DNA of 54,970 nucleotides from Candidatus Doudnabacteria bacterium (GTDB taxonomy: Bacteria > Patescibacteriota > Doudnabacteria > UBA920 > VMFF01). Below the pieces are notes generated by a model, which saw only the letters and a program-made list of their open reading frames with translations, was not told the DNA's origin and ran no database searches. Where the stretch lies: the NCBI GenBank assembly GCA_028286905.1, contig JAQBQP010000002.1, positions 1 to 54,970 on the forward strand, in the 5' to 3' direction. Each line of letters starts with the position of its first letter. Position 1 is the first letter of the stretch. Positions 181-15,405 of the stretch are shown piece by piece. A program made the position numbers and the translations under genes.

Positions 181-285
181 AAATCAAGTAGAATCCACCA
201 GCAACTATGGAGATTTTCAGTAGGAGAAAGACTAACGTGTTCGTCTAGAAGGCCGGAGACAGTAATGTTGATGGCCTTTCTCTTT
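181..285 (+). ncRNA. Candidate ~105-nt small RNA between the extended -10 promoter and a family-1 hairpin terminator
   Basis: Promoter at 166-174 and terminator at 249-285. Bases 190-250 resemble 3430-3478. Only a 13-codon ORF is present. Confidence 0.3.
249..285 (+). terminator. Family-1 structured hairpin terminator (AAGGCCG-GA-GAC-AGTAAT-GTT-GA-TGGCCTT + TTTCTCTTT)
   Basis: Stem with a tandem GA/GA internal loop. Differences from the other copies are G-U compatible. Confidence 0.65.
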
Positions 286-329
286 ATCTATAGTATTCTG
301 CTATGCTATAAGTAATTAAACTTCTTTTT

Positions 330-710
330 ATGTATGGCATACCATTTTTATTTCTCATTATATTTTTAATTGTTTTTATCCAAGCAGTGCGCAAGAAAAT
401 GTTTGCTACAACTGGCAGCTCTATCATATTTGCTTTTTCATACGCATTACCTTTATCGGGAGCGATTCTATTTTTTTTAACAGGCTTGGGCATGTTTGCG
501 AAATTACAAAGCAAGGCCGCATTAATTGGTGGGGTAATGTATGTCTCCGGAATAATTTTATTCGTAATAAGTAATAAGATTAAACAAAAGTATTCCTCAC
601 AAAATGCGAATATTCAAGTACAGGATTTTAATTTAGGCAAGGTTTTATTTTTAGGTGCCTTACCGTTTCTGGTTATGGTAAGCATAATATTGCTTATGCT
701 GTCGGTATAG
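330..710 (+). CDS. Small multi-pass membrane protein
   Basis: 126-aa ORF with several hydrophobic segments. No recognisable motif. Confidence 0.5.
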   Translation: MYGIPFLFLIIFLIVFIQAVRKKMFATTGSSIIFAFSYALPLSGAILFFLTGLGMFAKLQSKAALIGGVMYVSGIILFVISNKIKQKYSSQNANIQVQDFNLGKVLFLGALPFLVMVSIILLMLSV

Positions 711-763
711 TTGGTATTATCGGTACGTTAGGTCGCATTAATTCCTGAGTATAGAGAAACAAG

Positions 764-800
764 AATCGCTTAACAGGCGGTTTTTTGTTATGCTTAATTT
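764..800 (+). promoter_or_regulatory. Composite terminator + extended -10 promoter (TGtTATGCT, 786-794) placed 6 nt before the ATG at 801 (leaderless start)
   Basis: Hairpin at 764-782, U-tract, then TG-n-TATGCT. The -10 ends at 794 and the ATG is at 801. Confidence 0.55.
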
Positions 801-1163
801 ATGAACAGAGAACTGGGAGGCTACAATCCAGAAGAGGTGCCAGAACCGGAGCCAACTAAAGAATCGAAAGATTTAGCTACTTTGGACAGGTTTGTATTGA
901 TGATACAAAAAAACGACTTAGGAGCGTACAGTTATATGAAATCTCATAAGATGGAGATAAACACTCAGAATAGTGATGGTGTAACTCCGTTAATCGCAGC
1001 AATACAAAACAAAAATTTCTCGATGTTTAGTTTTTTAGTAAATGAAAAAAAGATTGATTTTCACGCAACAGATAAAGACGGACACACCCCTCTTTGGCAT
1101 GCAATGAAAAGTGAAGACGGTTCTTATAAAATGACTTTAAAAGTCTTTGGAGCCAAGAGCTAA
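801..1163 (+). CDS. Ankyrin-repeat protein
   Basis: Two ANK-like repeats (DGVTPLIAAIQNKN... and DKDGHTPLWHAM). Confidence 0.7.
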   Translation: MNRELGGYNPEEVPEPEPTKESKDLATLDRFVLMIQKNDLGAYSYMKSHKMEINTQNSDGVTPLIAAIQNKNFSMFSFLVNEKKIDFHATDKDGHTPLWHAMKSEDGSYKMTLKVFGAKS

Positions 1164-1166
1164 TTT

Positions 1167-1895
1167 ATGTCTCAATCAGAAATTTTAAAAAGAGCGACCA
1201 ATCCAAAGCAATACGATTCTCAAGATTTAGAATGGAGCCTTGAAGCATCAATGGAATCTCCTAGGACACAGTTTCTTTGGGAATACTTAAGAGGTTATGT
1301 TACCGAATGGAAAGGTAAAAGAGTTCTAGATATTGGTTCAGGGGACGGCTGGTTACTTGCTCAGGCACTTATGGCTGGAGCAAGTTGTGCTATTGGGGTA
1401 GAACCTTCAACACACAATGTGGCATTATCTAAGAAATTAAATCCGGATATAGAAGTTTTTGAAACAAGTTTTGAGGAATATCAAATAATAAAAAATAGCG
1501 CTGATATTGCGCTTGGAATTCTGTCTTTTTCACATATCAAAAATCTGCAAGAGGTATTAGTAAAAATCGAAGATATCTTATCAGTGAACGGTGAGTTATT
1601 TTTAATAGTTCCAGACTTTATTCATTTTAAAAAACCTAGAAGGAAGTACAAGATAGAATTTGAAGACTTAAGCGCAGAAGAATACGTTGTCTCAATAACT
1701 CGTCCTAGCGGAACTATCGCTGACATTGTTAGAACCAATTCTATTTATGTTGAGGCTGCAAAGAAAGCAGGCTTAGATTTAGTAGAGGTTATCCCGATGC
1801 TACCTACAGAAAAATTTATGACGCAATACTCGGATTTAAGAGAGTTTGAAGGGCATCCTATAATGCAGTTACTTCGATTTAGAAAGAGTGTATAA
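1167..1895 (+). CDS. Class I SAM-dependent methyltransferase
   Basis: Motif I VLDIGSGDGW and a Rossmann-like pattern. Confidence 0.75.
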   Translation: MSQSEILKRATNPKQYDSQDLEWSLEASMESPRTQFLWEYLRGYVTEWKGKRVLDIGSGDGWLLAQALMAGASCAIGVEPSTHNVALSKKLNPDIEVFETSFEEYQIIKNSADIALGILSFSHIKNLQEVLVKIEDILSVNGELFLIVPDFIHFKKPRRKYKIEFEDLSAEEYVVSITRPSGTIADIVRTNSIYVEAAKKAGLDLVEVIPMLPTEKFMTQYSDLREFEGHPIMQLLRFRKSV

Positions 1896-1947
1896 TATCC
1901 TTACAATCAAATTAATATCCGTTTTCCTATAGGTACGTCAGGTCTGG

Positions 1948-1992
1948 ACACCTCCATTGTAAGGAGAAAAGCATCTCAAAAGAGGTGTTTTT
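1948..1992 (+). terminator. Terminator-like hairpin (ACACCTC ... GAGGTGT, long loop) + TTTTTATTTT
   Basis: 7-bp stem and a 27-nt loop, followed by a T-tract. Preceded by the ACGTCAGGTC box at 1935-1944. Confidence 0.4.
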
Positions 1993-1998
1993 ATTTTG

Positions 1999-2027
1999 TT
2001 GACATAAGCTCCTAAATCTCGTATAAT
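1999..2027 (+). promoter_or_regulatory. Perfect consensus sigma70 promoter TTGACA-N17-TATAAT (island 1)
   Basis: TTGACA at 1999-2004, a 17-nt spacer and TATAAT at 2022-2027. Confidence 0.75.
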
Positions 2028-2101
2028 TGTGAATCCTGTTAAAAAGTCTCGACATGAAGTCGAGCGCTTGGTTCGCCAAGTTCTGAAACAGGTAAGGGAT
2101 T

Positions 2102-2671
2102 ATGCTTCGCGAGAACATTCTGTTGTGGAAAAATCATGACCGACCTTGGGCAACCACCGGGGTGATGTTCGTGGAAGTTGACGGAGAATGGAAAGCCGAG
2201 ATTTCACGTGCTTGTGCGGTAACCAGCAAAGGAAAAGGGTGCCTAGACATTCGTCTGAGTTTTCCAAAGCCCTCACCCGGCCGCCCTTTCTACTCTCGTT
2301 TCGAGTCGCTCAGCGAGGGGGGGCGTAAGTATTGGACCCACTACATGAACGAGCTGCAGCAGCGGGCAACCGCAGCTGCGCAGCAAAAGTTGTCAGGCAT
2401 TCTTCGGACGGAGCGAGCGCGAGTAAGCTGTGTGGGAAGCCAAGGCGAAACTTTCCACTACGAGATTGTCTTCTCCGCTAAACCCAGGGAGAATCTCTCT
2501 GACACGGCGATGAAGCTGTTCGTTCTAGCTCTGCAGGCTTTGGGTGTAGAGGACTGGTCCAAAGTGCCTGAGCCCAAGGCTGATTACCGCTTGGTCATGG
2601 AAGAGCAAGATAGAAAAAAGTTGGCACGATTCGCGAAGGATTTGGCGAAGAAGCACTACCCAGTTCGATAA
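2102..2671 (+). CDS. GC-rich orphan protein, 189 aa (island 1)
   Basis: Long ORF in ~60% GC DNA with a purine-rich SD (AAGGGA) 4 nt upstream. The 5' UTR has two hairpins, one with a UUCG loop (2067-2080). No motif recognised. Confidence 0.55.
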   Translation: MLRENILLWKNHDRPWATTGVMFVEVDGEWKAEISRACAVTSKGKGCLDIRLSFPKPSPGRPFYSRFESLSEGGRKYWTHYMNELQQRATAAAQQKLSGILRTERARVSCVGSQGETFHYEIVFSAKPRENLSDTAMKLFVLALQALGVEDWSKVPEPKADYRLVMEEQDRKKLARFAKDLAKKHYPVR

Positions 2672-2695
2672 ATCACCTCTAACAGCCGAGGGTTC

Positions 2696-3016
2696 ATGGA
2701 GTGCGCCATATGCTACAAGGGTGAAGGGCATTGGGCGCACTGTCCCTTGCACCCTGACAACGTTCGGAAAAGGGATGGTCGCTGTCGGCTGTGTTGGGAG
2801 TTTGTCCATTCACCCGCCTGTCCGTCGGTGGTGGGTGATGGTTCTCCCGAGAAGCAAGAGTGGATTAATTTTTATCTCGCTTCTCTCAATGACACCGCCC
2901 TTCCTGAATCCCGGCTGCTACCTCCCGATGTGAGGCAGTGTGCGATGGCGCTGGGTGCTGTACACGGTGTTGAGAAAACACAGTCGGATTCCGACGGGGA
3001 GGGGCTGTGTAGTTAA
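2696..3016 (+). CDS. GC-rich Cys/His-rich small protein, 106 aa (possible zinc-binding)
   Basis: CxxC...HxxHC...CxxC...C pattern in the first 45 aa. SD GAGGG. Lies 24 nt after the previous ORF. Confidence 0.5.
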   Translation: MECAICYKGEGHWAHCPLHPDNVRKRDGRCRLCWEFVHSPACPSVVGDGSPEKQEWINFYLASLNDTALPESRLLPPDVRQCAMALGAVHGVEKTQSDSDGEGLCS

Positions 3017-3032
3017 GGAGGATGTTGTAGTT

Positions 3033-3089
3033 GCGCTTAAATGCGCGCGAAGGGGCCGGAGACAGAAATGTCGACGGCCTTTTCTCTTT
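3033..3089 (+). terminator. Family-1 3' module: GCGC hairpin + GGCCGGAGACAGAAATGTCGACGGCC hairpin + TTTTCTCTTT
   Basis: Same module as at 6834-6887 and 15367-15405. Confidence 0.7.
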
Positions 3090-3099
3090 GTGCATTTCT

Positions 3100-3108
3100 T
3101 GGTATGCT
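3100..3108 (+). promoter_or_regulatory. Extended -10 promoter TGgTATGCT driving gcRNA-A
   Basis: Identical TTGGTATGCTCTTA box at 6893-6906. Confidence 0.45.
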
Positions 3109-3114
3109 CTTAAC

Positions 3115-3404
3115 AACCCAACATGGAGGAGGTATGCCACCTCTGGCTGTACGGCTCTAAAGGCACACGCATGCGGCCCACCCTGAGCCTGAAAACAAAA
3201 GGGTGAAGAGTCCTAGATTCCGACAAGGAATTGAGACGCCGCGTCCACAGAATCCCGCGCTCGTTAGTATGCGTCATCGGACGGCAAAGGCGAGACAGGC
3301 AGGGGCTACTCTGGGAATTCAGCTCCACTGGGAAATACTGCTAACGGAGGAAGTTGTAATCGTAGGAGGGATTAGCGCACAGCATTTAGGTGCGCTTTTC
3401 TTTT
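3115..3404 (+). ncRNA. gcRNA-A: ~290-nt GC-rich non-coding RNA candidate with its own promoter and terminator
   Basis: Bounded by the extended -10 promoter and the family-2 terminator. Many local hairpins (e.g. GAGGT/ACCTC). The only ORF over 30 codons, 3203..3421 on the ORF track, reads through the family-2 terminator; the other plus-strand ORFs are of about 27 codons or fewer. Confidence 0.45.
3374..3404 (+). terminator. Family-2 terminator (AGCGCAC ... GTGCGCT + TTTTCTTTT)
   Basis: 7-bp GC stem followed by a T-tract. A second copy lies at 6953-6977. Confidence 0.7.
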
Positions 3405-3487
3405 ACCCAAACTTGTCCTAGAATATCTACAGAATCATCCACAACTAATCTTTCAGTAAGAAACGTCAGGTCGCAACACCCAGAAAC

Positions 3488-3516
3488 TCCCTATTGGAAA
3501 TGGTAAGGAGTTTTTT
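3488..3516 (+). terminator. Terminator hairpin, copy 2 of the 47-nt repeat (3483-3528), followed by TGtTATGTT
   Basis: Near-identical to 132-178. Confidence 0.6.
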
Positions 3517-3584
3517 GTTATGTTAGACTTAATTCGTTTAAAAGGTAATTTTATTGCTATACTATAGACAATTAATTTATTCAA

Positions 3585-5537
3585 ATGAAAAAAATTCTTT
3601 TCATGGTGTTAATGCTGCTGACTACAACTTTGTTCAGCACTGCAAATATTGCTCGCGCAGCCTCTTTACAAATATTAACCTCTACAGCTCCGAACGCTAC
3701 AGTGGGACAAGCCTACTCAACTCAGCTGCAAGTAAGTGGTGGAACGGCTCCATACACTTGGTCAACTCTTTCTACCACATACCCCTCTGGGTGCTGTATT
3801 ATGGGCATAGATTCAACAGGTGTTTTAAACACTCAGAGCAGCGCAACTGTTTTGGCTCCTAGTGGAACTTATTCTTGGAATGTTCAGGTAACTGATGCCA
3901 TTGGAAATACCGGCACCGGTGTCATTTACTTAACCGTAAATTCTGCAACTACCCCAACTTTGATTGTTAGTGATAGCGTCGTTTCTTTTAACTACACTCA
4001 AGGCGGTTCAGCCCCTACACAGTATCCGGCGCACATTAGTAACAGCTCAAACAGTCAAACTATCAATTACACAATTTCTGTACCTAACCAACCAGCGTGG
4101 TTAAACACTAGCTACACCACCTACAGTTTGCCGTTAAATCCTCTACAAACTGCTGGAGTAGGAATTTCAGTTAATCCTGTCGGATTAGCTCCGGGCAATT
4201 ATAGTACAAATATTTACTTCAGTGGGAATTTCTCAAATTCACCGGCAAGTATTACTGTTAATTTAACTGTTACTGGCGCTACATCCGTCTGTTCAATTAA
4301 TTCCTTTACCCCAAGCGCAACCTCATTAACTACGGGGCAAGCCGTTACTCTTAACTGGTCTACCCAGGGTTGTAATACTTTGAGGTTGGTTTCTACTAAC
4401 GTGGATAAAAATATTTTTACAACGCCGCTTAGCTCTAATTTATCAGGCTCAGCCACAACTTCTGTTTTTTCGACCCCTGGCACATATTATTACCGCTTGG
4501 CCGCCTCTCCAAGAAATACATCTGACTTTCTAGAAGTATCAACCACGCCAGGAGATGTTAAGCAGGATTTAAGTTTTGTCGTCACCGCTGCCCCAACTAA
4601 CTTATTACTAATAACAACCAACTCCTTACCTAACGGAACCGTGGGGATGCCTTATGCTGCGGATGTTAATTTTTCTTATTCCGGCAATGGATGCGTATCT
4701 GGGTACTTAAGTTATTTGCCTGCTGGTCTGTACGTTGGTAATCCGACATCAAGCCCGCTGACTGTAAATTGTTCTTCGGGAAGTCATAGCTTCCGGATAC
4801 TAGGCACGCCAGTCACCGGAGGTGCAACGAGCCCTAACGCTACAATAACCATATCACTTACTGATAATTTGGGTAATATGAATTCTAAAACCATTCCTAT
4901 TAAAATTGATAATAATCAGCCGTATGAGGTGGCTAATGGGCCAGTTTCTTCGGGCAAGAACGTAATTTATAATGGAACGGTCTATTATATAGACGGTTTT
5001 ACTAGAAAACCTTACACATCTGCCGGTGCTTTCCTATCCTACAGCTTTAATTCTTGGAGCACTGTGAGTGCAGCAACGAGTTCAGACATGGCATTGCCTT
5101 TGGCAACCTATACTCCTAACGGTAGTGCAGTCTCAACAACCGCTTTTGTTTTGCCGAGAAATGGAACCTTAATAAATGACAAGGGTACAATATATCTTAT
5201 TTCGAATGGCTTGCGGATGGGTTTTGCTAACGCAAGCGCATTCCTAAATTTTGGTTATTCTTTCTCCAATGCAGCTCCCGGAGATACATCATTTATGGTT
5301 ACCTTGCCTCCCATTAATTCCAGTAATCAGGCGCATCCTAATGGTACACTTGTTCGAGAAAGCAACGGAACCATCTCGGTAATTCGTGATGGCTACAGGC
5401 AGGGTGTTCCAGGAATGGACAAATTCTCCTCTTGGGGGCTCAAGGTTGAAGAGTTGGTTCCTGCGAACTCATATGATATTGCTTTGCCAATCACCACACA
5501 ATTGCAGACTCGTATGTCTAACCAATTTGATATTTAA
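3585..5537 (+). CDS. Secreted surface protein with Ig-like repeats and a C-terminal repeat domain
   Basis: Signal peptide MKKILFMVLMLL...ARAAS. Contains a GQAYSTQLQVSGGTAPYTW Ig-like motif and a CSINSF...LNWSTQGC domain also seen in 45734..48001. The C-terminal NGT(L/I)..(D/E).GTIY repeats are shared with 27832..29532 and 29624..30388. Confidence 0.8.
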   Translation: MKKILFMVLMLLTTTLFSTANIARAASLQILTSTAPNATVGQAYSTQLQVSGGTAPYTWSTLSTTYPSGCCIMGIDSTGVLNTQSSATVLAPSGTYSWNVQVTDAIGNTGTGVIYLTVNSATTPTLIVSDSVVSFNYTQGGSAPTQYPAHISNSSNSQTINYTISVPNQPAWLNTSYTTYSLPLNPLQTAGVGISVNPVGLAPGNYSTNIYFSGNFSNSPASITVNLTVTGATSVCSINSFTPSATSLTTGQAVTLNWSTQGCNTLRLVSTNVDKNIFTTPLSSNLSGSATTSVFSTPGTYYYRLAASPRNTSDFLEVSTTPGDVKQDLSFVVTAAPTNLLLITTNSLPNGTVGMPYAADVNFSYSGNGCVSGYLSYLPAGLYVGNPTSSPLTVNCSSGSHSFRILGTPVTGGATSPNATITISLTDNLGNMNSKTIPIKIDNNQPYEVANGPVSSGKNVIYNGTVYYIDGFTRKPYTSAGAFLSYSFNSWSTVSAATSSDMALPLATYTPNGSAVSTTAFVLPRNGTLINDKGTIYLISNGLRMGFANASAFLNFGYSFSNAAPGDTSFMVTLPPINSSNQAHPNGTLVRESNGTISVIRDGYRQGVPGMDKFSSWGLKVEELVPANSYDIALPITTQLQTRMSNQFDI

Positions 5538-5564
5538 AATTTCCTCTTAGTTTCTAGTCGCGAA

Positions 5565-5601
5565 AAGGCCGGAGACAGTAATGTCGACGGCCTTTTCTTT
5601 T
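5565..5601 (+). terminator. Family-1 hairpin terminator after an AT-rich host gene
   Basis: AAGGCCGGAGACAGTAATGTCGACGGCCTT followed by TTCTTTT. Confidence 0.7.
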
Positions 5602-5611
5602 GCCCAAAAGA

Positions 5612-5646: not shown

Positions 5647-6021
5647 ATGAACGCACCATCATATTTTGAAATTCAAGTTGAGGATACTCAACGAGCCGTT
5701 AATTTCTACCAAGAAATTTTTGGTTGGAAGTTTACGAAAGACGAAAATATTCCGATTGAGTATTGGCGGATAGAAACAGAGGGCGCAAGGGGAGGTTTGT
5801 TAAAACGTCCTGTCTCAAAGCCTACTCCGTCAGGTACCAACGCTTTCGTTTGCTCCATGGAAGTAAAAGGTTTTGACTCCGTTAGTGAAAAAATTCTTCA
5901 ACTAGGGGGCCAAATAGCTTTGCCAAAATTCGCAGTAATGGGTGTTTGTTGGCAGGGGTATTTTTTGGACACCGAAGGCAATACATTCGGATTATTTGAA
6001 CCAGACTTGCAAGCTAAATAA
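5647..6021 (+). CDS. VOC (glyoxalase/bleomycin-resistance) family protein
   Basis: N-terminal FEIQVED...AVNFYQEIFGW and C-terminal GYFLDTEGNTFGLFE signatures. Confidence 0.75.
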   Translation: MNAPSYFEIQVEDTQRAVNFYQEIFGWKFTKDENIPIEYWRIETEGARGGLLKRPVSKPTPSGTNAFVCSMEVKGFDSVSEKILQLGGQIALPKFAVMGVCWQGYFLDTEGNTFGLFEPDLQAK

Positions 6022-6099
6022 TTTTTGTGAAAGACCGAATTGTCGCTTGTTAAAAGCGAAGGGAGTTACATTTGGAGCAAAGACGTTCGCTATTGTGTT

Positions 6100-6128
6100 T
6101 TGACGGAGATCCGAGCTTGTGGTATTCT
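6100..6128 (+). promoter_or_regulatory. Promoter TTGACG-N17(TGg)-TATTCT (island 2)
   Basis: -35 at 6100-6105 and extended -10 at 6120-6128. Confidence 0.6.
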
Positions 6129-6200
6129 CGAGCTATCTCCTGAGGTGGCTTCTGTCCGGGTCACGTGACCTGATCAGACTCACCTTTTCAGGAGAGCTCC

Positions 6201-6764
6201 ATGCTTATTGTAGAATCCAAGCGCCGAGTTCAAGTGCGGACTCGTGTCATGCAGATCCTAGTACGTGAGATGTCTTCTCGTCCTGCGAATGCTGTAACTA
6301 GAAATGTTACTGTTTGGGTATCACCCGATGTGCTAGTGAATTTGGGTGGATATGGTGATCTGCAGGAGTGGGTGTTCGAGGTGCGAACGCTCAGCTTCTT
6401 TTGGGAACTGATAAGAAAAGGTTTTGCGCCCACGGGGTGTTCTCCCGACCTTAATATTCTGGTGCTTTCCGAGGCGATCGAAAACAAACTTGTTCTCACC
6501 TTTGATTGGGAGGTGCGGGATGCTGCTGGGTATAGGAGAGTCGGCGAGGCTCAGGCACCCGGCTCCTACGGAATCTTTGCAAGCCAAAGAGGGGAACTTC
6601 TTCTCTATAAGAGGGTAACGGCAGGGTTGTCGGAAGCATTGCAACGGCGTCTCAATGAAAAAGCCCGAGCAGTGCGCGAAGCTTTGAACCGGGAAAATGT
6701 TGCGGAGGCGTTGTGTCAGCTGAAACATCTTGAGCTTGCTATTGATGCGGTCCCTCTGGAATAA
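6201..6764 (+). CDS. GC-rich orphan protein, 187 aa (island 2)
   Basis: SD AGGAG 6 nt upstream of the start. The C-terminus looks coiled-coil-like. No motif recognised. Confidence 0.5.
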   Translation: MLIVESKRRVQVRTRVMQILVREMSSRPANAVTRNVTVWVSPDVLVNLGGYGDLQEWVFEVRTLSFFWELIRKGFAPTGCSPDLNILVLSEAIENKLVLTFDWEVRDAAGYRRVGEAQAPGSYGIFASQRGELLLYKRVTAGLSEALQRRLNEKARAVREALNRENVAEALCQLKHLELAIDAVPLE

Positions 6765-6887: not shown

Positions 6888-6893
6888 GTGCGT

Positions 6894-9419: not shown

Positions 9420-9537
9420 AATTTATTTGGTTTCTTTTCTAATCGTGATATGATATTGGTATGAACTGTTAATCTAAAAGTTTAATTAAAAAAGTCGAAT
9501 CTCTTTTTAAGAAGACAGCTTTTGTTAATTTCTTTAA

Positions 9538-9558
9538 GCCGCCGAAAGGCGGTTTTTT
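9538..9558 (+). terminator. GAAA-loop terminator (GCCGCC GAAA GGCGG + TTTTTT)
   Basis: Same family as the hairpins at 10366-10388 and 13494-13516. Confidence 0.65.
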
Positions 9559-9564
9559 GTTGGT

Positions 9565-9593
9565 TAGACAAATTCTTTTTAAAGTGGTATATT
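9565..9593 (+). promoter_or_regulatory. Promoter TAGACA-N17(TGg)-TATATT (island 3); ~45-nt module shared with 14691-14730
   Basis: The sequence TAGACAAATT...TATATTCATTTATCCA is conserved in both copies. Confidence 0.65.
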
Positions 9594-9674
9594 CATTTAT
9601 CCAGCCACGGATAAATGTGAAATGCGACCTGCATTATTTCACAAGGACAACGCCTACTCTGACAGGAGGTTCGG

Positions 9675-10043
9675 ATGAAGGAAGTATTTATTTTCCTTGC
9701 GGGAGCCCTGACGGTGGTGGTGCTCTGTCTCGTAAGAGAAGTAACGCACAACTCCGTTGATGCGCGCTTCGCTCGTCTTCGAGAAGAGTTCAAGAGACAC
9801 ATTGGTCGCCCGGTGGAGGTTTTCAATAGCGACCCCACAGGCACGCTGTATCGGGTGATCAGCGTCGGCGACGATCACGCTGTGCTCGACGGTGGAAATG
9901 GTCGCGGCCCGATCATGTATCAATTCGCGTGCATGGCGGGAGTAAAGCCGCGGTACCTGGTTTCCAAGGGGAAAATCATTCCTACCGTGGGAAAAGGTGA
10001 AGCTCCGCTGATGGCGCGGTTGCTTTCTGGGGTAGGCAGATAG
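9675..10043 (+). CDS. GC-rich membrane-anchored orphan protein, 122 aa (island 3)
   Basis: Strong SD AGGAGG 6 nt upstream. N-terminal TM helix FIFLAGALTVVVLCLV. Confidence 0.55.
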   Translation: MKEVFIFLAGALTVVVLCLVREVTHNSVDARFARLREEFKRHIGRPVEVFNSDPTGTLYRVISVGDDHAVLDGGNGRGPIMYQFACMAGVKPRYLVSKGKIIPTVGKGEAPLMARLLSGVGR

Positions 10044-10048
10044 TTGGC

Positions 10049-10077
10049 TTGACATCATACGTTGTTACTTGTAAAAT
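10049..10077 (+). promoter_or_regulatory. Promoter TTGACA-N17-TAAAAT driving gcRNA-C
   Basis: -35 at 10049-10054 and -10 at 10072-10077. It starts 6 nt after the stop of the upstream ORF. Confidence 0.6.
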
Positions 10078-10083
10078 GCGTGA

Positions 10084-10322
10084 AAGTAATAAATCAAAAA
10101 AAGTAGTAAATCAAAAAGAAGGGCCGCGAGCTCAGGTTAAGCCAACGTGCTAAACGCCGTTTGATCAACGGGGGACCTGAAGTAGTGGAATGAAAGTTTT
10201 TCTTTTGAACAGGTATTCTGTGGTGATCCACAACTTGGTTACTAAGTAAGTAGCTGGGGGAATATCTCTCAGGAGTATGTTCTGAGGGGCGCTAGGTCAT
10301 ATTGACTAGCGCCCTCTTTGTT
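10084..10322 (+). ncRNA. gcRNA-C: ~240-nt non-coding RNA candidate with a 2 x 17-nt A-rich tandem repeat at its 5' end
   Basis: Repeat units at 10085-10101 and 10102-10118. Ends in a 9-bp terminator stem. No ORF. Confidence 0.4.
10287..10322 (+). terminator. Terminator (GGGCGCTAG / CTAGCGCCC + TCTTTGTT)
   Basis: 9-bp GC-rich stem. Confidence 0.7.
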
Positions 10323-10365
10323 ATATAACATCCCTTGTATCCTACTGTTAATTGTCGTATGCAGC

Positions 10366-10402
10366 AGTCGCCGAAAGGCGGCTTTTTTGTTATGCTTCGA
10401 AT
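10366..10402 (+). promoter_or_regulatory. Composite GAAA-loop terminator + extended -10 (TGtTATGCT, 10388-10396) placed 6 nt before the galE ATG (leaderless)
   Basis: The -10 ends at 10396 and the ATG is at 10403. Confidence 0.6.
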
Positions 10403-11383
10403 ATGAAAATACTAGTCACAGGCGGCGCAGGCTATATTGGCAGCGTTGTTGCTGAGACTTTAATAAATACGGGCTATGAAGTTATCGTTGTAGATAACTT
10501 TTTTGGTGATGAAAAAAGCCCTATCAATCCAAAAATTAAATTGATAAAGGGTGACATTGGCGACCTTGAAATTTTACGAAGGATCTTCGAAGAAAACGAT
10601 ATTGATGCTGTAATGCACTTAGCAGCGTTCATTGAGGTGGAAGAGTCAATGCGCTTGCCACAAAAATATTTTGAAAATAATTACGAAAAACCGCTTCGAT
10701 TGTTAGAAGCAATGCGTAAGGCAAGGACAAAGCTTTTAATTTTTTCCTCAACTGCTGCGGTATACGGAATTCCCAATAGTTCTCCGATTAAGGAGACTGA
10801 TTTAACTAATCCGATCAACCCTTATGGAGAAAGTAAACTTAAATTTGAAAAAGCGTTATTTGATGAACAACAAAAGTACGGACTAAAGTACGTTGCATTG
10901 CGATACTTTAATGCGGCCGGAGCAACCCCAGAACATGGCGTGATGGGGTCTCACCAAACACATTTGATATCTGTCGCCATGCAAGTTGCGACAGGAGAGC
11001 GGGATAGTATAAAACTTTATGGGAATGACTATCCTACTAAAGATGGTACGTGCATAAGAGACTATGTTCATGTTCAAGATATTGCCAGTGCGCACTTGGT
11101 GGTTTTAAATTTTTTAAAGACTCAGACTTCGCCCGAAGCAAATAAATTTACTGATAATGTCTATAATGTAGGTTCAGGCCAGGGATATTCAAATAAAGAA
11201 GTGCTTGATGAAATACAAAAAATTTCTGGTAAAAAATTAAATATTGTTCTCGCCGAACGTCGGCTTGGCGATCCCCCAGCACTTTTGGCGGACATATCTA
11301 AAATATCAGAATTAGGATGGGAGGCAGAACACTCAGGCTTAATAAATATTATTAAAACTGCATGGGGTTGGAAGAAGGGATAG
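10403..11383 (+). CDS. galE: UDP-glucose 4-epimerase
   Basis: MKILVTGGAGYIGS NAD-binding motif and the YGESK catalytic YxxxK. I prefer the ATG at 10403 over the TTG at 10352, which lies within the terminator. Confidence 0.9.
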   Translation: MKILVTGGAGYIGSVVAETLINTGYEVIVVDNFFGDEKSPINPKIKLIKGDIGDLEILRRIFEENDIDAVMHLAAFIEVEESMRLPQKYFENNYEKPLRLLEAMRKARTKLLIFSSTAAVYGIPNSSPIKETDLTNPINPYGESKLKFEKALFDEQQKYGLKYVALRYFNAAGATPEHGVMGSHQTHLISVAMQVATGERDSIKLYGNDYPTKDGTCIRDYVHVQDIASAHLVVLNFLKTQTSPEANKFTDNVYNVGSGQGYSNKEVLDEIQKISGKKLNIVLAERRLGDPPALLADISKISELGWEAEHSGLINIIKTAWGWKKG

Positions 11384-11390
11384 TTGCTTG

Positions 11391-11408
11391 TCGATGGCTT
11401 TTCTCTTT
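11391..11408 (+). repeat. Truncated family-1 module (3' arm only: TCGATGGCTTTTCTCTTT)
   Basis: It follows TAGTTGC, which contains the galE stop. The 5' arm of the hairpin is deleted relative to 15343-15405. Confidence 0.55.
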
Positions 11409-11409
11409 G

Positions 11410-11438
11410 TTGACAACACAGGCAAAGAAATATATTCT
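11410..11438 (+). promoter_or_regulatory. Promoter TTGACA-N17-TATTCT (island 4)
   Basis: -35 at 11410-11415 and -10 at 11433-11438. Confidence 0.6.
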
Positions 11439-11460
11439 AAGTTATCCATCTTCTGATGAG

Positions 11461-11649
11461 ATGGCAGACACTCAAATGGAGGATTCTCGGATGGTGTTAG
11501 CTATCGCGATGAGTGCATCACAGTGGGCTCGACTGCACCCGCCAACCCTGCTCGGCCAGACAATTGGACTGGCCATGCTATTTGGCCCAGTGCTTCTGGT
11601 CCTGCTGTTCGAGCATCTTCGCTCTGGGAGGCAGCAGCGGGTGGCGTAG
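11461..11649 (+). CDS. Possible 62-aa hydrophobic peptide inside gcRNA-D
   Basis: ATG without an SD. One TM-like segment (TIGLAMLFGPVLLVLLF). Mutually exclusive with a purely non-coding reading of this region. Confidence 0.2.
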   Translation: MADTQMEDSRMVLAIAMSASQWARLHPPTLLGQTIGLAMLFGPVLLVLLFEHLRSGRQQRVA

Positions 11650-11672
11650 CACCTGACGCGGAGGCTCAGTGT

Positions 11673-11709
11673 GCGCGGAACAATCATCTTGGTTCCGCGC
11701 TTTTCTTTT
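11673..11709 (+). terminator. Family-3 terminator copy 2
   Basis: GCGCGGAAC ... GTTCCGCGC followed by TTTTCTTTT. Confidence 0.7.
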
Positions 11710-11748
11710 AATGCCTATCCTTTGAATCACAATTTGTATAGGAGGGTG

Positions 11749-12198
11749 ATGACAATGTCTGTATTGCTCATGTCCCTGATAACACCAGTTCGTGCAAAGA
11801 ACACCGATCTTGTCCCTACATATTGGACGGTAGAGATTGATCGTTTGGAAGGTGAGGTAGACCTCGCTAATCTCGACTACTCTTCTTGCCCCGTGCAGAA
11901 CGGCGAGACCTGTATCAATGGCGACACTATGCTCGAACGGTCGGCGGCGTCGGATGTCTGTGGTAGTCTCGGCTTCGCAGCTGCACTATTCATGGCACAG
12001 AAAAACGGAAAGGATATCTTTCCCGTCGAGTCTCGTGGTAAGCATGATTTCTTAATGCCGCGAACTGTTTTGATCGATGACACTCGCCGACGCCGCATGG
12101 CTCGTTTCGGCTGGAGCGGTAAGCGTTGGGGGTTCAGTTTTTGTTGGTTGGGCTACGGTTTCCTGCCCAATACTCGGTTTGTTCGTCCCGCGAGGTAG
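11749..12198 (+). CDS. GC-rich orphan protein with a signal-peptide-like N-terminus, ~149 aa (island 4)
   Basis: SD GGAGGG lies upstream. The start could be ATG 11749 or ATG 11755. N-terminus MTMSVLLMSLITPVRA; several Cys residues. Confidence 0.45.
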   Translation: MTMSVLLMSLITPVRAKNTDLVPTYWTVEIDRLEGEVDLANLDYSSCPVQNGETCINGDTMLERSAASDVCGSLGFAAALFMAQKNGKDIFPVESRGKHDFLMPRTVLIDDTRRRRMARFGWSGKRWGFSFCWLGYGFLPNTRFVRPAR

Positions 12199-12253
12199 GC
12201 TAAGTTATTGTAGAGAGAAGCAAGCGCACAAATTCCCTCAACACGAGAGCGCA

Positions 12254-12715
12254 ATGGATAACAAGCCTGAAGCACTTGTATGCGTCAAGGATGAGCAAGC
12301 TTCCGCAGTACGAGATAAGGTTCGGCAAGATCGGGCGCGTTTGTTGGCGGGCATGTTTTCCGAAGCCCAACGCCTCGTGCGAGATCAACAAACCAATAGG
12401 GCTTCGTGCCTATTGGGCGTCATGCATCAGATTGCTCAAGAACTTGCAGCAATACTCAACACTGAAGTGTTCTCTCCTCAGAACACCCACCGAGCCCGCT
12501 TGTTTGTCATATGTGGGAGATACTATTATGTGTATGACAAGATGGATTCGCCTTGGCAACAAGATCGAACGGTGGGTGAGGAGGATCTAGAACATAAAGG
12601 CTATCTCGTGGCAACCTTCATGGGCAATCATAACGAAGTGGTTAGCCTCATTGGTATCGCTACAAGGGAGCTGAAGATCACGCAGGTGTATGTCTATCAT
12701 TCAAGTCCGCGTTGA
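12254..12715 (+). CDS. GC-rich orphan protein, ~153 aa (island 4)
   Basis: This is the first in-frame ATG that does not overlap the previous ORF. The SD is weak. Confidence 0.4.
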   Translation: MDNKPEALVCVKDEQASAVRDKVRQDRARLLAGMFSEAQRLVRDQQTNRASCLLGVMHQIAQELAAILNTEVFSPQNTHRARLFVICGRYYYVYDKMDSPWQQDRTVGEEDLEHKGYLVATFMGNHNEVVSLIGIATRELKITQVYVYHSSPR

Positions 12716-12796
12716 AGACAAGTTGGCCGCGGTGGCAAACCCGTTTGCTTTCAAAAGCGAAAAGCGAGTATCAAACCACTCTAGCCGGAGTATGTC

Positions 12797-12976
12797 GTGG
12801 ATTTTGAACAAGAGAAAACCCCTCCGATATTAATTTGTTCGGAGTGCGGAGCAGAATTTTCCAGGAACGAGGGCGATGCTCAGAGTAACCATATGGCCGA
12901 ATGCCATAAGGATGTCGTTCTGGCTCGGCTCATTGACCCGGAAGAGTTTGGGCAGCAAAGCTCGATGCTCCGTTGA
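12797..12976 (+). CDS. Possible 59-aa zinc-ribbon-like peptide (GTG start)
   Basis: CSEC ... HMAECH pattern. Not on the ORF track (below its length cutoff). It lies directly before the family-3 terminator. Confidence 0.2.
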   Translation: MDFEQEKTPPILICSECGAEFSRNEGDAQSNHMAECHKDVVLARLIDPEEFGQQSSMLR

Positions 12977-13020
12977 GCGGTAGGTAAGGAGGAAACACAG
13001 CGCATCATGCGCACGCAATT

Positions 13021-13059
13021 GCGCGGGGCAACCATCTTGGTTCCCGCGCTTTTAGTTTT
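13021..13059 (+). terminator. Family-3 terminator copy 3
   Basis: GCGCGGGGCAACC ... GGTTCCCGCGC followed by TTTTAGTTTT. Confidence 0.65.
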
Positions 13060-13080
13060 ACTTCTTACATTTTTGGCGTT

Positions 13081-13097
13081 TCGACGGTCTTTTCTCT
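13081..13097 (+). repeat. Degenerate family-1 3' arm (TCGACGGTCTTTTCTCT) followed by a TAGCAT -10-like box
   Basis: Aligns to GTCGACGGCCTTTTCTCT of the intact copies. Confidence 0.45.
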
Positions 13098-13148
13098 CGC
13101 ATAGCATAGGAGTACAATATAGATGAATCACTATTAAGCTAATGTAGC

Positions 13149-13493: not shown

Positions 13494-13530
13494 AATCGCC
13501 TGAAAGGCGGTTTTTTGTTATTCTAAGAGC
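13494..13530 (+). promoter_or_regulatory. Composite GAAA-loop terminator + extended -10 (TGtTATTCT, 13516-13524) placed 6 nt before the uppP ATG (leaderless)
   Basis: The -10 ends at 13524 and the ATG is at 13531. Confidence 0.6.
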
Positions 13531-14391
13531 ATGATTACATATTTTCAAGCGATTATTATCGGACTTTTACAAGGCGTTTCCGAATTATTTCCAATCTCTA
13601 GCTTGGGTCATAGCGTTATTCTTCCCAGGTTAGTTGGTTGGAATATAAATCAGAACGATCCTTTCTTTTTAACATTTTTAGTAGCGACGCATTTAGCAAC
13701 TGCGTTAGTTTTATTTTTCTTTTTTCGAAAGGATTGGATCAATATTATAAAAGGAATGGGGCGCTCTTTAAAAGAGCGAGAAATTAAGACTGATAATTAT
13801 CATGCCAAGCTTGGGTGGTTATTGGTAGTAGGAACTATTCCAACAGGGGTGCTGGGGTTATTGCTAGAAGAAAAGTTACGCGCGCTCTTTGCTTCTGCAT
13901 CTTCTGCAGCTTTTTTTCTGATCTTGAACGGCCTCTTGCTATATGCAGCTGAAATTTTAAAAAGAAAAGCACCTGAAAATAATGATGAGATTGGTTCCGA
14001 CAAGCGGTTGGCAAATTTAAACTTCTCGCAAGCTATAAAAGTAGGACTGGCTCAAATAATCGCACTGATTCCGGGGTTCTCTCGTTCTGGAGCTACAATG
14101 GCTGGCGGTTTAGCAGTGGGTCTTTCGCATGAAGACGCGGTAAGGTATAGTTTTTTATTAGCTACGCCGATTATTGGCGCAGCGGCGGTTCTAAAATTGC
14201 CAGAATTTTTTAAACCAGAAAACCATAATTTGATTGGACCTGCTTTGGTTGGCGCGCTATGCGCCGCCGGAGCTGCCATTGTCACTGTAAAATTTTTAGT
14301 TAAATATTTTCATACAAATAAATTAACCCCTTTCGCCATTTATTGTTTGGCGGCCGGGGTTATTTATTCTGCGCTGTTGTATTTTAGATAG
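13531..14391 (+). CDS. uppP: Undecaprenyl-diphosphate phosphatase
   Basis: The N-terminal sequence GLLQGVSELFPISSLGHS is typical of BacA/UppP. Eight hydrophobic segments. Confidence 0.9.
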   Translation: MITYFQAIIIGLLQGVSELFPISSLGHSVILPRLVGWNINQNDPFFLTFLVATHLATALVLFFFFRKDWINIIKGMGRSLKEREIKTDNYHAKLGWLLVVGTIPTGVLGLLLEEKLRALFASASSAAFFLILNGLLLYAAEILKRKAPENNDEIGSDKRLANLNFSQAIKVGLAQIIALIPGFSRSGATMAGGLAVGLSHEDAVRYSFLLATPIIGAAAVLKLPEFFKPENHNLIGPALVGALCAAGAAIVTVKFLVKYFHTNKLTPFAIYCLAAGVIYSALLYFR

Positions 14392-14614
14392 CTTGCTTTG
14401 GTCCACTTTTGAACCAAGCAAAAATGAACAAACCAATCGCAACCACAAACGAGGCTAGGCTATGCTTTGTGTGTATATGGTTGGACCCTGCAAGAGAGCC
14501 GGGGAAAAAACTTGGCAAAGTTTCAGCTGAATGGCTGGCATAAATATAGCCAATATAGATAAGTATTACTCCTAAAATTACTGCTGCAGTAACTATTCCT
14601 TTATTTTTATTCAT
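14384..14614 (-). CDS. Small membrane protein (2 TM)
   Basis: 76-aa ORF, convergent with uppP. Confidence 0.45.
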   Translation of the reverse strand: MNKNKGIVTAAVILGVILIYIGYIYASHSAETLPSFFPGSLAGSNHIHTKHSLASFVVAIGLFIFAWFKSGPKQAI

Positions 14615-14690
14615 AAATTTTATTACTAATTATATCGACAGTATACCATTTAATCTGGCAAAGAAAGCATTTTTACAGGTGCTTTTTGTC

Positions 14691-14719
14691 TAGACAAATT
14701 GATATTAAAATGATATATT
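14691..14719 (+). promoter_or_regulatory. Promoter TAGACA-N17(TGa)-TATATT (island 5); copy 2 of the module at 9565-9605
   Basis: -35 at 14691-14696 and -10 at 14714-14719. Confidence 0.65.
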
Positions 14720-14772
14720 CATTTATCCAAGTCTCTAGTCCTGGCTATGGGACACCAACCTTCGAGGTAAAC

Positions 14773-15345
14773 ATGTTTGAGACCAGACTGAATTTGGAAG
14801 AGCGGTTGAGCATGGCGAACATCGCTGGGACCGAAGCGTTCTATCTCAGTGCGCAGGGGCCGGCGAATACCGTTGCTCGGAAGCTCGAGGAAACGCATCG
14901 CTGGCGGCAGGTGAAGGAGTGGTTGCCGAAACCGGAGCTGGATCTGCTAGTAGCAAAGGTTGAAGGATTCAGGCTACTGCGGTCTGCGGCATTCACCAAC
15001 TACTTCTCGGTCGCCGATGTATTGGCGATCATTCTGCACTTCGGCCTTAGCAAAAGCCCCATTCCGCAGAAGAAGTTGTTCGCAAAGAACTACGGAGAGA
15101 ATTGGCCGATTCCTGAAGCCGAAAAGTCTCAGACCGTCAGTCTGCAGACCTTGAGCAATATCGGCGCCGGGCTAGCCAATGCTTCTCTGGTTCGGGAGCA
15201 TGTCGTTGATGTGCAGAAGGCCGCGTCTCTGGAGAACGCTTTCAGAGTCTTGCTTAGGGAGGCGAGCAGTTTCCCGAGGAAGTCGCGCGGCGCCATTTCC
15301 GTCCGGAAGTTCAAGGCGGAAAGAAGTGCAAGGAGGAGTGTGTAG
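14773..15345 (+). CDS. GC-rich orphan protein, 190 aa (island 5)
   Basis: SD GAGGT 4 nt upstream of ATG 14773. The TTG at 14686 on the ORF track lies upstream of the promoter. Confidence 0.5.
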   Translation: MFETRLNLEERLSMANIAGTEAFYLSAQGPANTVARKLEETHRWRQVKEWLPKPELDLLVAKVEGFRLLRSAAFTNYFSVADVLAIILHFGLSKSPIPQKKLFAKNYGENWPIPEAEKSQTVSLQTLSNIGAGLANASLVREHVVDVQKAASLENAFRVLLREASSFPRKSRGAISVRKFKAERSARRSV

Positions 15346-15366
15346 TTGCGTTTCAGTACGCGCGAG

Positions 15367-15405
15367 AAGGCCGGAGACAGCAATGTCGACGGCCTTTTCT
15401 TATTT
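15367..15405 (+). terminator. Family-1 hairpin terminator
   Basis: AAGGCCGGAGACAGCAATGTCGACGGCCTT followed by a T-tract. Confidence 0.7.

Follow-up and report, generated by a model that had tools for sequence, protein, structure and literature searches.

Near-identical terminator and promoter modules border GC-rich cassettes in a 16-kb stretch of a Candidatus Doudnabacteria chromosome

Unrelated genes normally carry unrelated terminator sequences. In the stretch of DNA analysed here (54,970 nt in full length, hereafter the window), however, self-comparison revealed modules of 43-71 nt that are 79-97% identical between unrelated genes. What are these modules, and why are they shared? The answer that we consider probable, with considerable room for doubt, is that they are not a dispersed repeat but form the regulatory borders of small, independently transcribed units, and that strain-variable, foreign-looking, moron-like cassettes share them. 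The host is a tiny soil bacterium of the Patescibacteria, with a genome size of 540 kb.

An initial annotation had located four families of recurring motifs, and all four were recovered there, far above chance, by repeat search and self-BLAST of the window (Table 1). Its description of the motifs as terminator and promoter modules with decayed copies, bordering GC-rich islands and AT-rich host genes alike and arranged in varying order between loci, agreed with the hairpins, U-tracts and half-copies observed and with the self-comparison. For family 1, the number expected by chance was 0.00 (100 shuffles); four copies (3052, 5565, 6850 and 15367) carry 0-2 mismatches to the 34-nt consensus, and the copy at 249 is 79% identical over 43 nt.

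From its base upwards, the family 1 RNA pairs over 10 bp, opens into a 2x2 tandem G·A/A·G loop, pairs again over 4 bp (GACA/UGUC) and is capped by a GNRA tetraloop; the U-tract comes next. The tandem GA/GA loop had been annotated correctly, but the proposed 3-bp stem with a 6-nt loop is in fact the 4-bp stem with its tetraloop (GAAA, GUAA or GCAA), of which the N is the sole variable loop base. The folds on the + strand, stabler than those on the - strand, ranged from -25 to -34 kcal/mol (z from -4.3 to -5.3) except for the weaker copy at 249, and UUUUCU follows each. The copies of families 1 and 3 behind an ORF are located 18-82 nt past the stop codon, all on the gene strand, including the family 1 copy 24 nt past the stop of the gene for a 650-aa Ig-like surface protein (43% GC). 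Because these hairpins with U-tracts are co-oriented with the genes and positioned behind stop codons, family 1 is an intrinsic (Rho-independent) terminator. Family 2 (repeat recovered at 3389/6962) and family 3 (7417/11673/13021), each a GC-rich hairpin followed by a U-tract, are likewise Rho-independent terminators, and the hairpins would be expected to terminate transcription in vivo.

At 3015, 6813 and 15330, family 1 is part of a common 71-nt extended module composed of AGGAGGA, a small GCGC hairpin and the terminator. The TAG of TAGTTGC is, as annotated, the stop codon of the ORF ending at 15345 (TAG 15343-15345) and of galE ending at 11383, but this does not extend to the ORFs before the copies at 3052 and 6850, which stop with TAA (3014-3016 and 6762-6764, respectively). 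All six substitutions in the family 1 stem, two in the copy at 249 and the others in 3052 and 15367, yield G·U on the + strand; from such substitutions in the copy at 249, the initial annotation had concluded that the structure is under selection. Since no compensatory double change was found among the only five copies available for comparison, and no covariation signal was detected against the shuffle control, such selection is suggested but not established. Half-copies, matching family 1 in its 3' arm and tail, occupy 11390-11402 and 13080-13092, and decayed copies of this kind may have arisen by deletion of hairpin tops. No ORF separates the copy at 249 from the family 4 terminator at 131-174, and so this copy is the remnant of an emptied cassette. 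Judging from its sequence, the roughly 85-nt unit ended by the second family 2 copy looks like a deletion derivative of 3090-3404.

Family 4, a GNRA hairpin plus TTTTTTGTTATGCT found at 131, 758, 3482, 9537, 10366 and 13495, combines the terminator native to the host with an extended -10 promoter located 6 nt ahead of leaderless ATGs. The same geometry was observed in the relative L163 (UppP 84% identical), in which TTTTTTGTTATGAT plus 6 nt and ATG precedes uppP, and a terminator similar to family 4 is present at 53420. Strong promoter matches were detected downstream of terminators at 1999, 6100, 6990, 9565, 10049, 11410, 14691 and 15404.

Table 1. Location of the islands, terminators and promoter modules along the window
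Feature	Position	Strand	Description and support
Window	1-54,970	forward	Candidatus Doudnabacteria bacterium, contig JAQBQP010000002.1 of GCA_028286905.1; 54,970 nt
Island 1	1916-3450	+	Promoter 1999-2027 (12/12 match); ORFs 2102-2671, 2696-3016; family 1, non-coding unit, family 2
Island 2, ORF part	6022-7460 (whole island)	+	Promoter 6100-6128, ORF 6201-6764, family 1, short unit with family 2
Island 2, RNA part	6022-7460 (whole island)	+	Promoter 6990-7018, 430-nt RNA unit, family 3
23S rRNA L1-stalk-like domain	7275-7349	+	In island 2 RNA unit
Island 3	9562-10365	+	ORF 9675-10043, promoter 10049-10077, structured 240-nt non-coding unit (z -5.1)
Island 4	11407-13080	+	Promoter 11410-11438; ORFs 11461-11649, 11755-12198, 12254-12715, 12797-12976
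Island 5	14690-15920	+	ORF 14773-15345, family 1, promoter 15404-15433, 460-nt non-coding unit
Family 1, most diverged copy	249-285	+	-16.9 kcal/mol; covariance model 59.7 bits
Family 1, extended 3' module, island 1	3015-3089	+	AGGAGGA, small GCGC hairpin, family 1 (hairpin 3049-3084), U-tract; z -4.3; 70.1 bits
Family 1	5559-5604	+	-25 kcal/mol, z -4.7; covariance model 72.4 bits
Family 1, extended 3' module, island 2 ORF unit	6813-6889	+	73.9 bits
Family 1, extended 3' module, island 5 ORF unit	15330-15406	+	z -5.3; covariance model 71.3 bits
Family 1, decayed module behind galE	11381-11408	+	TAGTTGC then GTCGATGGCTTTTCTCTTTG, hairpin top deleted; no stable fold
Family 1, decayed 3' half	13080-13098	+	Sequence match, fold check
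Family 2	3374-3404	+	GCGCAC loop GTGCGC + CTTTTCTTTT; closes non-coding unit 3110-3404; z -3.9
Family 2	6953-6977	+	Closes roughly 85-nt unit; z -4.6
Family 3	7417-7455	+	12-bp stem, end of 430-nt non-coding unit of island 2; z -8.7
Family 3	11673-11709	+	23 nt past 62-aa ORF of island 4; repeat match, fold
Family 3, diverged copy	13021-13059	+	44 nt past zinc-ribbon ORF of island 4; repeat match, fold
Family 4	131-174	+	Native GNRA-loop terminator + TTTTTTGTTATGTT (extended -10); repeat match
Family 4, terminator/promoter junction	758-794	+	-10 TATGCT with its end 6 nt ahead of ATG 801 (leaderless geometry)
Family 4	3482-3524	+	Right border of island 1; repeat match
Family 4	9537-9561	+	Left direct repeat of island 3; score 40 vs shuffle maximum 25
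Family 4	10366-10396	+	Right direct repeat of island 3, -10 for leaderless galE (ATG 10403)
Family 4, terminator/promoter junction	13495-13524	+	Ahead of leaderless uppP (ATG at 13531)
Shared promoter module	9557-9603	+	TAGACA-17-TATATT with TG; starts island 3; repeat match, promoter scan
Shared promoter module, second copy	14683-14729	+	Starts island 5; repeat match, promoter scan

Five GC-rich islands (about 50-56% GC versus 38%) have these modules at their borders. The island ORFs have Shine-Dalgarno sites, their own promoters and a coding-like GC1/2/3 pattern. No match to Pfam, PHROG or PADLOC was found for them; three gave self-hits only among 5.8 billion proteins, and for one of these three an exhaustive phmmer search also returned only itself. 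Within the RNA unit of island 2, the segment resembling the 23S rRNA L1 stalk matches positions 2109-2183 of E. coli 23S rRNA (71% over 76 nt, E 3.7e-7 with a 5.4-kb database) and has the same helix layout. Three metatranscriptomes of the same study showed nothing on the region except a cross-match to rRNA.

All the families are restricted to the first 16 kb of the window, as indicated by repeat scan, self-BLAST and covariance model, with 2-6 copies each. In the whole source assembly (19 million contigs), in which the genome has a depth of about 43x, a census placed families 1 and 3, like the shared promoter module, only on the 3 contigs that compose the window. The covariance model of family 1 gave no further match in the window and none in 198 kb from relatives; pattern and covariance scans detected no family 1 copy in the other 39 kb of the window; and pattern scans detected no exact family 1 copy in genome, metagenome or viral collections and no exact family 3 copy in the viral collection. 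Terminator-like sites were enriched only in 1-17 kb (33 versus 16.2±3.8 expected), the rest of the window giving 20 versus 16 and 26 versus 17 expected.

Modules also flank several units as direct repeats. Two family 4 copies enclose island 3, the family 1 half-copies (left 11381-11408, right 13080-13098) enclose island 4, 30-nt direct repeats (15402-15431 and 15890-15918) enclose the RNA unit of island 5, and a family 3 copy stands on each side of the ORFs at 11755-12976. For island 1, the flanking repeats by themselves did not exceed shuffles (score 21 versus a maximum of 24), and by the same test island 2 has none. In related-strain contigs, modules stand where variable segments meet their neighbours, which is compatible with the suggestion of the initial annotation that they could act as recombination sites for the cassettes. 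The source sample includes a low-depth contig without island 1, joining 1915 to 3451, and in a related strain the galE stop is joined to 12253, skipping 870 nt with about 131 unaligned nt between; these variants come from short, low-depth contigs, whose origin could be another locus in a related genome. In related strains, at least four different sequences were seen upstream of family 1. Between-strain conservation of island 5 was not clearly above that of the downstream gene, and for this reason recent mobility is not established.

Based on these observations, we can propose how the locus is organized. Each GC-rich cassette would consist of a promoter, a Shine-Dalgarno site, one or more orphan ORFs or a structured RNA, and a terminator of families 1-3, and the cassettes would occupy the gaps between native genes of the Patescibacteria chromosome, together forming one strain-variable 16-kb stretch. 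The promoter part of family 4 would start the gene that follows, which is often leaderless. Common descent may account for the modules being nearly identical, the cassettes bringing the terminator-promoter junction with them or duplicating it on insertion, so that units would be flanked by direct repeats of modules. Gain and loss of cassettes probably took place through recombination between the repeated modules, for which loop-out and Campbell-type or double-crossover insertion are conceivable routes, possibly preceded by uptake of sibling-strain DNA.

The hairpins might instead be target sites of a tyrosine recombinase, in an integron-like or pdif-module-like array with the recombinase outside the window as in CALIN, but this is unlikely. 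Such an array could include co-oriented orphan-ORF cassettes, each closed by a highly similar imperfect palindrome, and be strain-variable, as is the case here; in family 1, two inverted arms of 11 nt can be seen as enclosing a spacer of 6 nt, the half-copies on either side of island 4 start precisely where the spacer meets the right arm, and the islands are grouped near the window's left edge. However, the RYYYAAC...GTTRRRY pair is absent in family 1, the 36-nt hairpin has no extrahelical bases (attC sites are 57-141 nt long), and the copies differ in their spacer (A, T or C), a difference that would prevent strand exchange. Promoters are present within the cassettes themselves, the direct repeats of different units come from different families, no recombinase was detected among roughly 50 window ORFs scanned against Pfam, and termination alone fully explains the U-tract and the position behind stop codons. 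It is quite unlikely that the tandem G·A and GNRA hairpin represents, beyond termination, a specific RNA element (for protein binding, processing or 3' stabilisation) by which the cassettes are co-regulated post-transcriptionally. In its favour, none of the five copies varies in the internal loop or in the helix that closes the terminal loop, G·U changes being accepted only in the outer stem, and in three copies the conservation reaches the second small hairpin and the upstream AGGAGGA box. With five recently related copies, however, constraint cannot be told apart from common ancestry; tandem G·A and GNRA motifs simply stabilise, Rfam gave no match for family 1, and two copies have decayed with no apparent replacement.

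The initial annotation had likened the motifs to mosaic intergenic repeats of the REP/BIME type, which would be spread genome-wide, and had speculated that they might serve as uptake signals in a genome with type IV pilus machinery. They are indeed extragenic palindromes at gene ends in varied combinations, and the genome encodes PilB, PilT and PilC homologues. This proposal is nevertheless very improbable given the local confinement described above, all five family 1 copies lying inside 15 kb, barring numerous copies of under 80% identity in the full genome, and k-mer counts revealed no over-represented short word distributed along the window in the manner of an uptake signal. Hardly credible is the explanation that the GC-rich islands are chimeric assembly errors, with the repeats as joints of unrelated genomes: the GC content shifts abruptly at the repeats and independent contigs end at family 1 copies sharing 31-mers, but an independent 28.6-kb contig covers islands 3-5, a portion of island 2 and the host genes at an even depth of 43x, which the other two contigs match, and the same island-host junctions are present in related strains from other samples.

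The shared ends of moron-like cassettes can be compared with several known systems. As in canonical intrinsic terminators, a GC-rich stem, a GNRA tetraloop and a U-tract follow the stop codon at a short distance on the gene strand, the difference being the near-identity between unrelated genes. Enterobacterial REP/BIME elements, some of which affect termination or mRNA stability, are likewise extragenic imperfect palindromes arranged in mosaics at gene 3' ends, but REPs are present in hundreds of copies genome-wide and linked to RAYT transposases. In Neisseria, a host with type IV pili, minimal mobile elements are variable cassettes between conserved genes that are exchanged across strains, and NIME/dRS3 form local short-repeat mosaics at gene ends, thought to promote recombination. 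The cassettes, the gene-end mosaics and the type IV pili are features in common with the present locus; in contrast, the uptake sequence is absent here, there is no sequence similarity, the phylum is another one, and the repeats are terminators or promoters in five or fewer copies. Chromosomal integron arrays and CALINs (Cury et al. 2016) also consist of co-oriented, mostly orphan and strain-variable cassettes with a palindrome after each. The palindromes here, however, end in U-tracts and do not have the consensus, the length or the extrahelical bases of attC, the cassettes come with promoters of their own, native genes are interleaved, and neither an integrase nor attI was seen. Phage morons (Juhala, Hendrix et al. 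2000) are reportedly independent promoter-gene-terminator units inserted between neighbouring genes. The cassettes described here resemble them in deviant base composition, in often having no known function and in their variability among close relatives, and differ in that they reside in a bacterial chromosome with no phage genes found in 55 kb, that several units are non-coding RNAs, and that nearly identical terminators recur from unit to unit and also flank the units as direct repeats.

The hairpin modules recur in the window as the initial annotation had claimed. Four places match the consensus of family 1, one of the repeated hairpin and U-tract modules, with 0-2 mismatches, where 100 shuffles gave no match, and the fifth copy, at 249, was recovered by repeat search, self-BLAST and a covariance model. 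These approaches also identified a 71-nt extended module common to three family 1 copies, and recovered families 2 and 3 and the family of GNRA hairpins followed by TTTTTTGTTATGCT, while both half-copies of family 1 are matches to its 3' arm and tail. On folding, family 1 showed a 10-bp outer stem (GAAAAGGCCG/CGGCCUUUUC), a symmetric tandem G·A/A·G internal loop, above it a 4-bp stem (GACA/UGUC) and a GNRA tetraloop cap (GAAA, GUAA or GCAA, N being the sole variable loop base), the hairpin being followed by UUUUCU. Its stability is -25 to -34 kcal/mol (z -4.3 to -5.3), the plus-strand RNA being more stable than the minus-strand RNA, and six stem cells differ among the five copies, all six giving G·U on the plus strand. 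This strand asymmetry fits an RNA-level element, in partial agreement with the proposal that the structure is under selection, although five copies that are related to each other cannot prove it; as to compensatory substitutions in the stem, there were no double changes, and the shuffle control gave no covariation signal for the five copies.

Families 2 and 3 share the CUUUUCUUUU tail of family 1 and have simpler GC hairpins. Across the three families the folding energy is -14 to -34 kcal/mol (z -3.4 to -8.7), and UUUUCU(U/C)UU comes next, so that on the transcribed strand a GC-rich hairpin is combined with a U-rich tract as in intrinsic terminators. Those copies of families 1 and 3 that follow ORFs are located where terminators are expected, 18-82 nt past the stop codon and all on the plus strand like the genes. 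Terminator-like sites between 1 and 17 kb number 33 (16.2±3.8 expected), the other two thirds of the window being without enrichment. Families 1-3 are predicted intrinsic terminators. The TAG of TAGTTGC does serve as the stop codon of ORF 14773-15345 and galE, as the initial annotation had stated, but not as that of the ORFs preceding the 3052 and 6850 copies. At the end of ORF 2696-3016, a 19-nt tandem duplication of (G/A)GGAGG..TGTAGTT (2995-3031) puts the TAA stop 12 nt ahead of the module TAG, which is the stop in the island 5 copy. No Rfam family was assigned to any hairpin or island RNA at gathering or permissive thresholds, the only match being a 17-nt T-arm to the tmRNA model, and the metatranscriptome contigs of the same study gave no usable signal on the region. 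To see if family 1 belongs to the native genome, relatives of the 650-aa surface protein were sought, and none were found.

The motifs were compared, at 80% likeness, with the complete assembly of the source sample (19 million contigs). Genome-wide spread was not observed: family 1 was detected only on the three contigs tiling the window, and the window's contig alone carried family 3 and the shared promoter module. By exact 31-mers, the two family 1 copies with loop base A are at 2x genome depth and the others at single depth. The covariance model gave 60-74 bits for the five copies and up to 20 bits for their own minus strands, with nothing else above 14 bits in the window and nothing above 13 bits in 198 kb from relatives. 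Searched by exact pattern, the genome and metagenome collections contained no family 1 and the viral collection neither family 1 nor family 3, the relatives found via UppP had neither copies of families 1-3 nor a clear island equivalent, and no short word is spread across the window. Based on the census, covariance model, exact scans and word counts, we conclude that the families are local. A literature search returned nothing specific.

The initial annotation had likened the modules to REP/BIME repeats, with confinement to this window as a finding that would refute its reading, and had also considered DNA-uptake signals. REP/BIME-like repeats occur in tens to hundreds of copies across a genome in association with a RAYT (REP-associated tyrosine transposase) gene; here the copies are only on the window's contigs, and no RAYT gene was found among the window ORFs scanned. 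DUS/USS are 9-12-nt words present genome-wide at about one copy per kb in both coding and non-coding DNA; the over-represented GC-containing words of the window are just the five family 1 copies, none lying beyond 16 kb. Both readings fail on the terms that the initial annotation itself had set.

The window originates from a soil-metagenome organism of about 38% GC, and its proteins are placed on a single 540-kb contig in the protein database. It contains the start of the 23S rRNA gene with tRNA-Ile and tRNA-Ala, and encodes a type IV pilus locus (PilB, PilT and PilC), LigA, UppP, GalE and further products of ordinary bacterial genes. Identity to MAGs labelled Patescibacteria, Doudnabacteria or Saccharibacteria is 70% for PilB and up to 84% for UppP; galE, with best matches of 46-47% identity, was uninformative for phylogeny. 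Bacteria of the candidate phyla radiation have tiny genomes and are thought to rely on hosts and DNA uptake; to our knowledge, little is known of how they acquire new genes. At the left edge, positions 1-127 are at 2x genome depth in the source assembly and on another contig are followed by a different terminator hairpin, indicating that this gene end is duplicated elsewhere in the genome. Between the MarR-family gene (7846-8361, minus strand) and the divergent DUF4287 gene (8416-8622), a near-perfect 42-nt palindrome (8340-8381) carries TTGACA-17-TACAAT on both strands, and is likely a MarR operator with overlapping divergent promoters.

Five islands of about 50-56% GC break up the AT-rich genes of this region (see table). 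The island units are preceded by sigma-70 consensus matches of 9-12/12, and the island ORFs have Shine-Dalgarno sites and a GC1>GC2 pattern like that of coding DNA. These ORFs are mutually non-paralogous, and none matched Pfam, PHROGs or PADLOC. Three tested ORFs gave self-matches only among 5.8 billion proteins, exhaustive phmmer with one of them gave nothing real, and viral contigs contained no relatives of two ORFs; one match obtained in these searches, to a plectin-repeat protein, was spurious. ARAGORN detected no tRNA or tmRNA in the islands, and for two of the island proteins the AlphaFold models built from a single sequence could not be used (pLDDT 39 and 44). Between strains, ORF 12254-12715 differs by 10 non-synonymous and 5 synonymous codon changes, compared with 2 and 11 for uppP, indicating that this ORF is near-neutral or under diversifying pressure.

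Coordinates of islands, flanking repeats, non-coding units and terminator-promoter modules (promoter, strong sigma-70-type match at the island start)
Feature	Position	Strand	Promoter	Flanking repeats	Remarks
Island 1	1916-3450	+	1999	weaker ACGTCAGGTC...ACACC repeat, direct	about 50-56% GC
Island 2	6022-7460	+	6100		about 50-56% GC
Island 3	9562-10365	+	9565	two copies of one family 4 hairpin, direct; score 40 vs shuffle maximum 25	about 50-56% GC
Island 4	11407-13080	+	11410	two decayed family 1 halves, direct	about 50-56% GC
Island 5	14690-15920	+	14691		about 50-56% GC
ORFs	11755-12976			two family 3 copies, direct	
Non-coding unit, island 3	10084-10325				z -5.1; no Rfam family, no ORF
Non-coding unit, island 5	15440-15905			30-nt direct repeats	z -3.4; perfect tRNA/tmRNA-type T-arm at 15797-15813; no Rfam family, no ORF
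Family 4 junction and ATG	789-803; 10391-10405; 13519-13533				
Family 4 junction equivalents, L163 (relative with 84% identical UppP)	4903-4925; 9981-10003				
Repeated terminator modules, L164 (Doudnabacteria-labelled MAG)	719-783, 3157-3221, 5756-5820; 12027-12103, 14793-14869				

Family 4 is a GNRA-capped hairpin of which the T-run merges into TGnTATGCT, an extended -10 element; between its end and the ATG there are 6 nt in the genes starting at 801, 10403 (galE) and 13531 (uppP). This 6-nt spacing at native genes implies that their mRNAs would be leaderless. The closest relative carries TTTTTTGTTATGAT, 6 nt and ATG ahead of uppP and another gene, and a terminator like family 4 is located at 53420, ahead of the rRNA; family 4 is therefore the native terminator-promoter junction of the lineage. 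Unlike the native genes with leaderless geometry, the island ORFs use Shine-Dalgarno sites. Relatives carry local terminator repeat families of their own; in L164, terminator modules of 65-77 nt, up to 97% identical, are repeated near uppP, and locally repeated terminators may thus be a lineage trait.

Behind the island ORF units there are separately promoted, terminator-closed non-coding units, three of four being more stable than shuffles (z -3.4, -3.8 and -5.1). Recoded stop codons were rejected as an explanation, no frame being significantly open. The short unit of island 2 (6890-6984) resembles an internal-deletion derivative of the island 1 unit of about 300 nt (3090-3404), the two having in common the start TTGGTATGCTCTTA, the TCTAAAGGCA box and the family 2 terminator. 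Within the 430-nt RNA unit of island 2 (7025-7455), the segment 7275-7349 resembles the L1 stalk of 23S rRNA, with 71% identity over 76 nt to the E. coli sequence (positions 2109-2183; E 3.7e-7, computed in a 5.4-kb database). It keeps the three-helix layout, helix 78 being swapped for a different but paired sequence, and its unusual GGTTGGGAG variant is present also in a genuine metagenome 23S gene; Rfam did not call the segment. Upstream are a stretch weakly similar to the 5' end of 16S rRNA (7117-7140, E 0.39) and a motif resembling a T-arm (7237-7255), the three segments standing in rRNA operon order. The L1-stalk-like segment may be a fragment of a foreign rRNA operon or a mimic of the L1-binding stalk. 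A recent copy of host 23S was rejected as its source, no other sample contig matching 7100-7400 at ≥80%, though this is a weak test.

Strain comparisons indicated that the locus varies. On a low-depth contig of the source sample, 1915 is joined to 3451 and island 1 is missing. Another junction, in a related strain, links the galE stop to 12253, with 870 nt skipped and about 131 unaligned nt between. At least four different sequences were found upstream of family 1, and different modules downstream of family 3. In a related strain (run X3), 6023 is joined to 9430, and island 2 and the AT-rich MarR-family, DUF4287 and lipoprotein genes are absent; the variable unit is therefore not confined to GC-rich DNA. 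A chimeric assembly is excluded, since islands and host genes are linked on an independent 28.6-kb contig at uniform depth. The locus is a compact hotspot, in which orphan cassettes of foreign composition alternate with native genes. A promoter of its own and a shared terminator insulate each cassette, and co-occurring strains differ in content. Cassettes would probably be gained and lost by recombination between the module repeats of 17-70 nt.

The main rival is a site-specific system, integron-like or Xer-like, in which the hairpins would be the recombination sites. An attC site of 57-141 nt has R'' (RYYYAAC) and R' (GTTRRRY) at the stem base, L boxes and extrahelical bases. An integron has an adjacent intI and an attI with the Pc promoter, neither being required of a CALIN, and its cassettes are mostly promoterless. 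Family 1, in contrast, is a symmetric hairpin of 36 nt with a 2x2 G·A loop and no AAC...GTT pair, and its 'spacer' differs among copies; the cassettes carry promoters of their own, and the flanking repeats are drawn from different families. Because of these features the site-specific reading is disfavoured. Among the window ORFs scanned, no integrase or other recombinase was found. Anatomy was also the ground for rejecting the attC, pdif and MITE readings: a MITE or insertion sequence has terminal inverted repeats and a short target-site duplication, or a transposase, and the units have no terminal inverted repeats, their flanking repeats of 17-40 nt being direct and different by unit, with no transposase found.

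Under recombination at module repeats, a broader role can be envisaged, although we consider it improbable: the terminator-promoter junctions would double as anchors of a cassette exchange either independent of recombinases or dependent on an unrecognised one, an 'integron without attC', by which ultra-small, pilus-bearing Patescibacteria shuffle fast-evolving orphan genes and structured RNAs, including an rRNA L1-stalk mimic, between strains. If junction recombination does drive the turnover, it would provide simple gene accretion in reduced genomes without mobile-element machinery. For annotation, near-identical gene-end hairpins are not necessarily dispersed repeats or uptake signals.

Among known systems, the phage moron is comparable. 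The island neighbours are housekeeping or accessory bacterial genes; unlike morons, the units are not in phage or prophage, and the island ORFs have no PHROG matches. As in a moron, an autonomous unit of promoter, ORF and terminator, deviant in composition, lies between two genes, and we read the region as a set of moron-like cassettes by which terminator-promoter junctions are brought in or duplicated.
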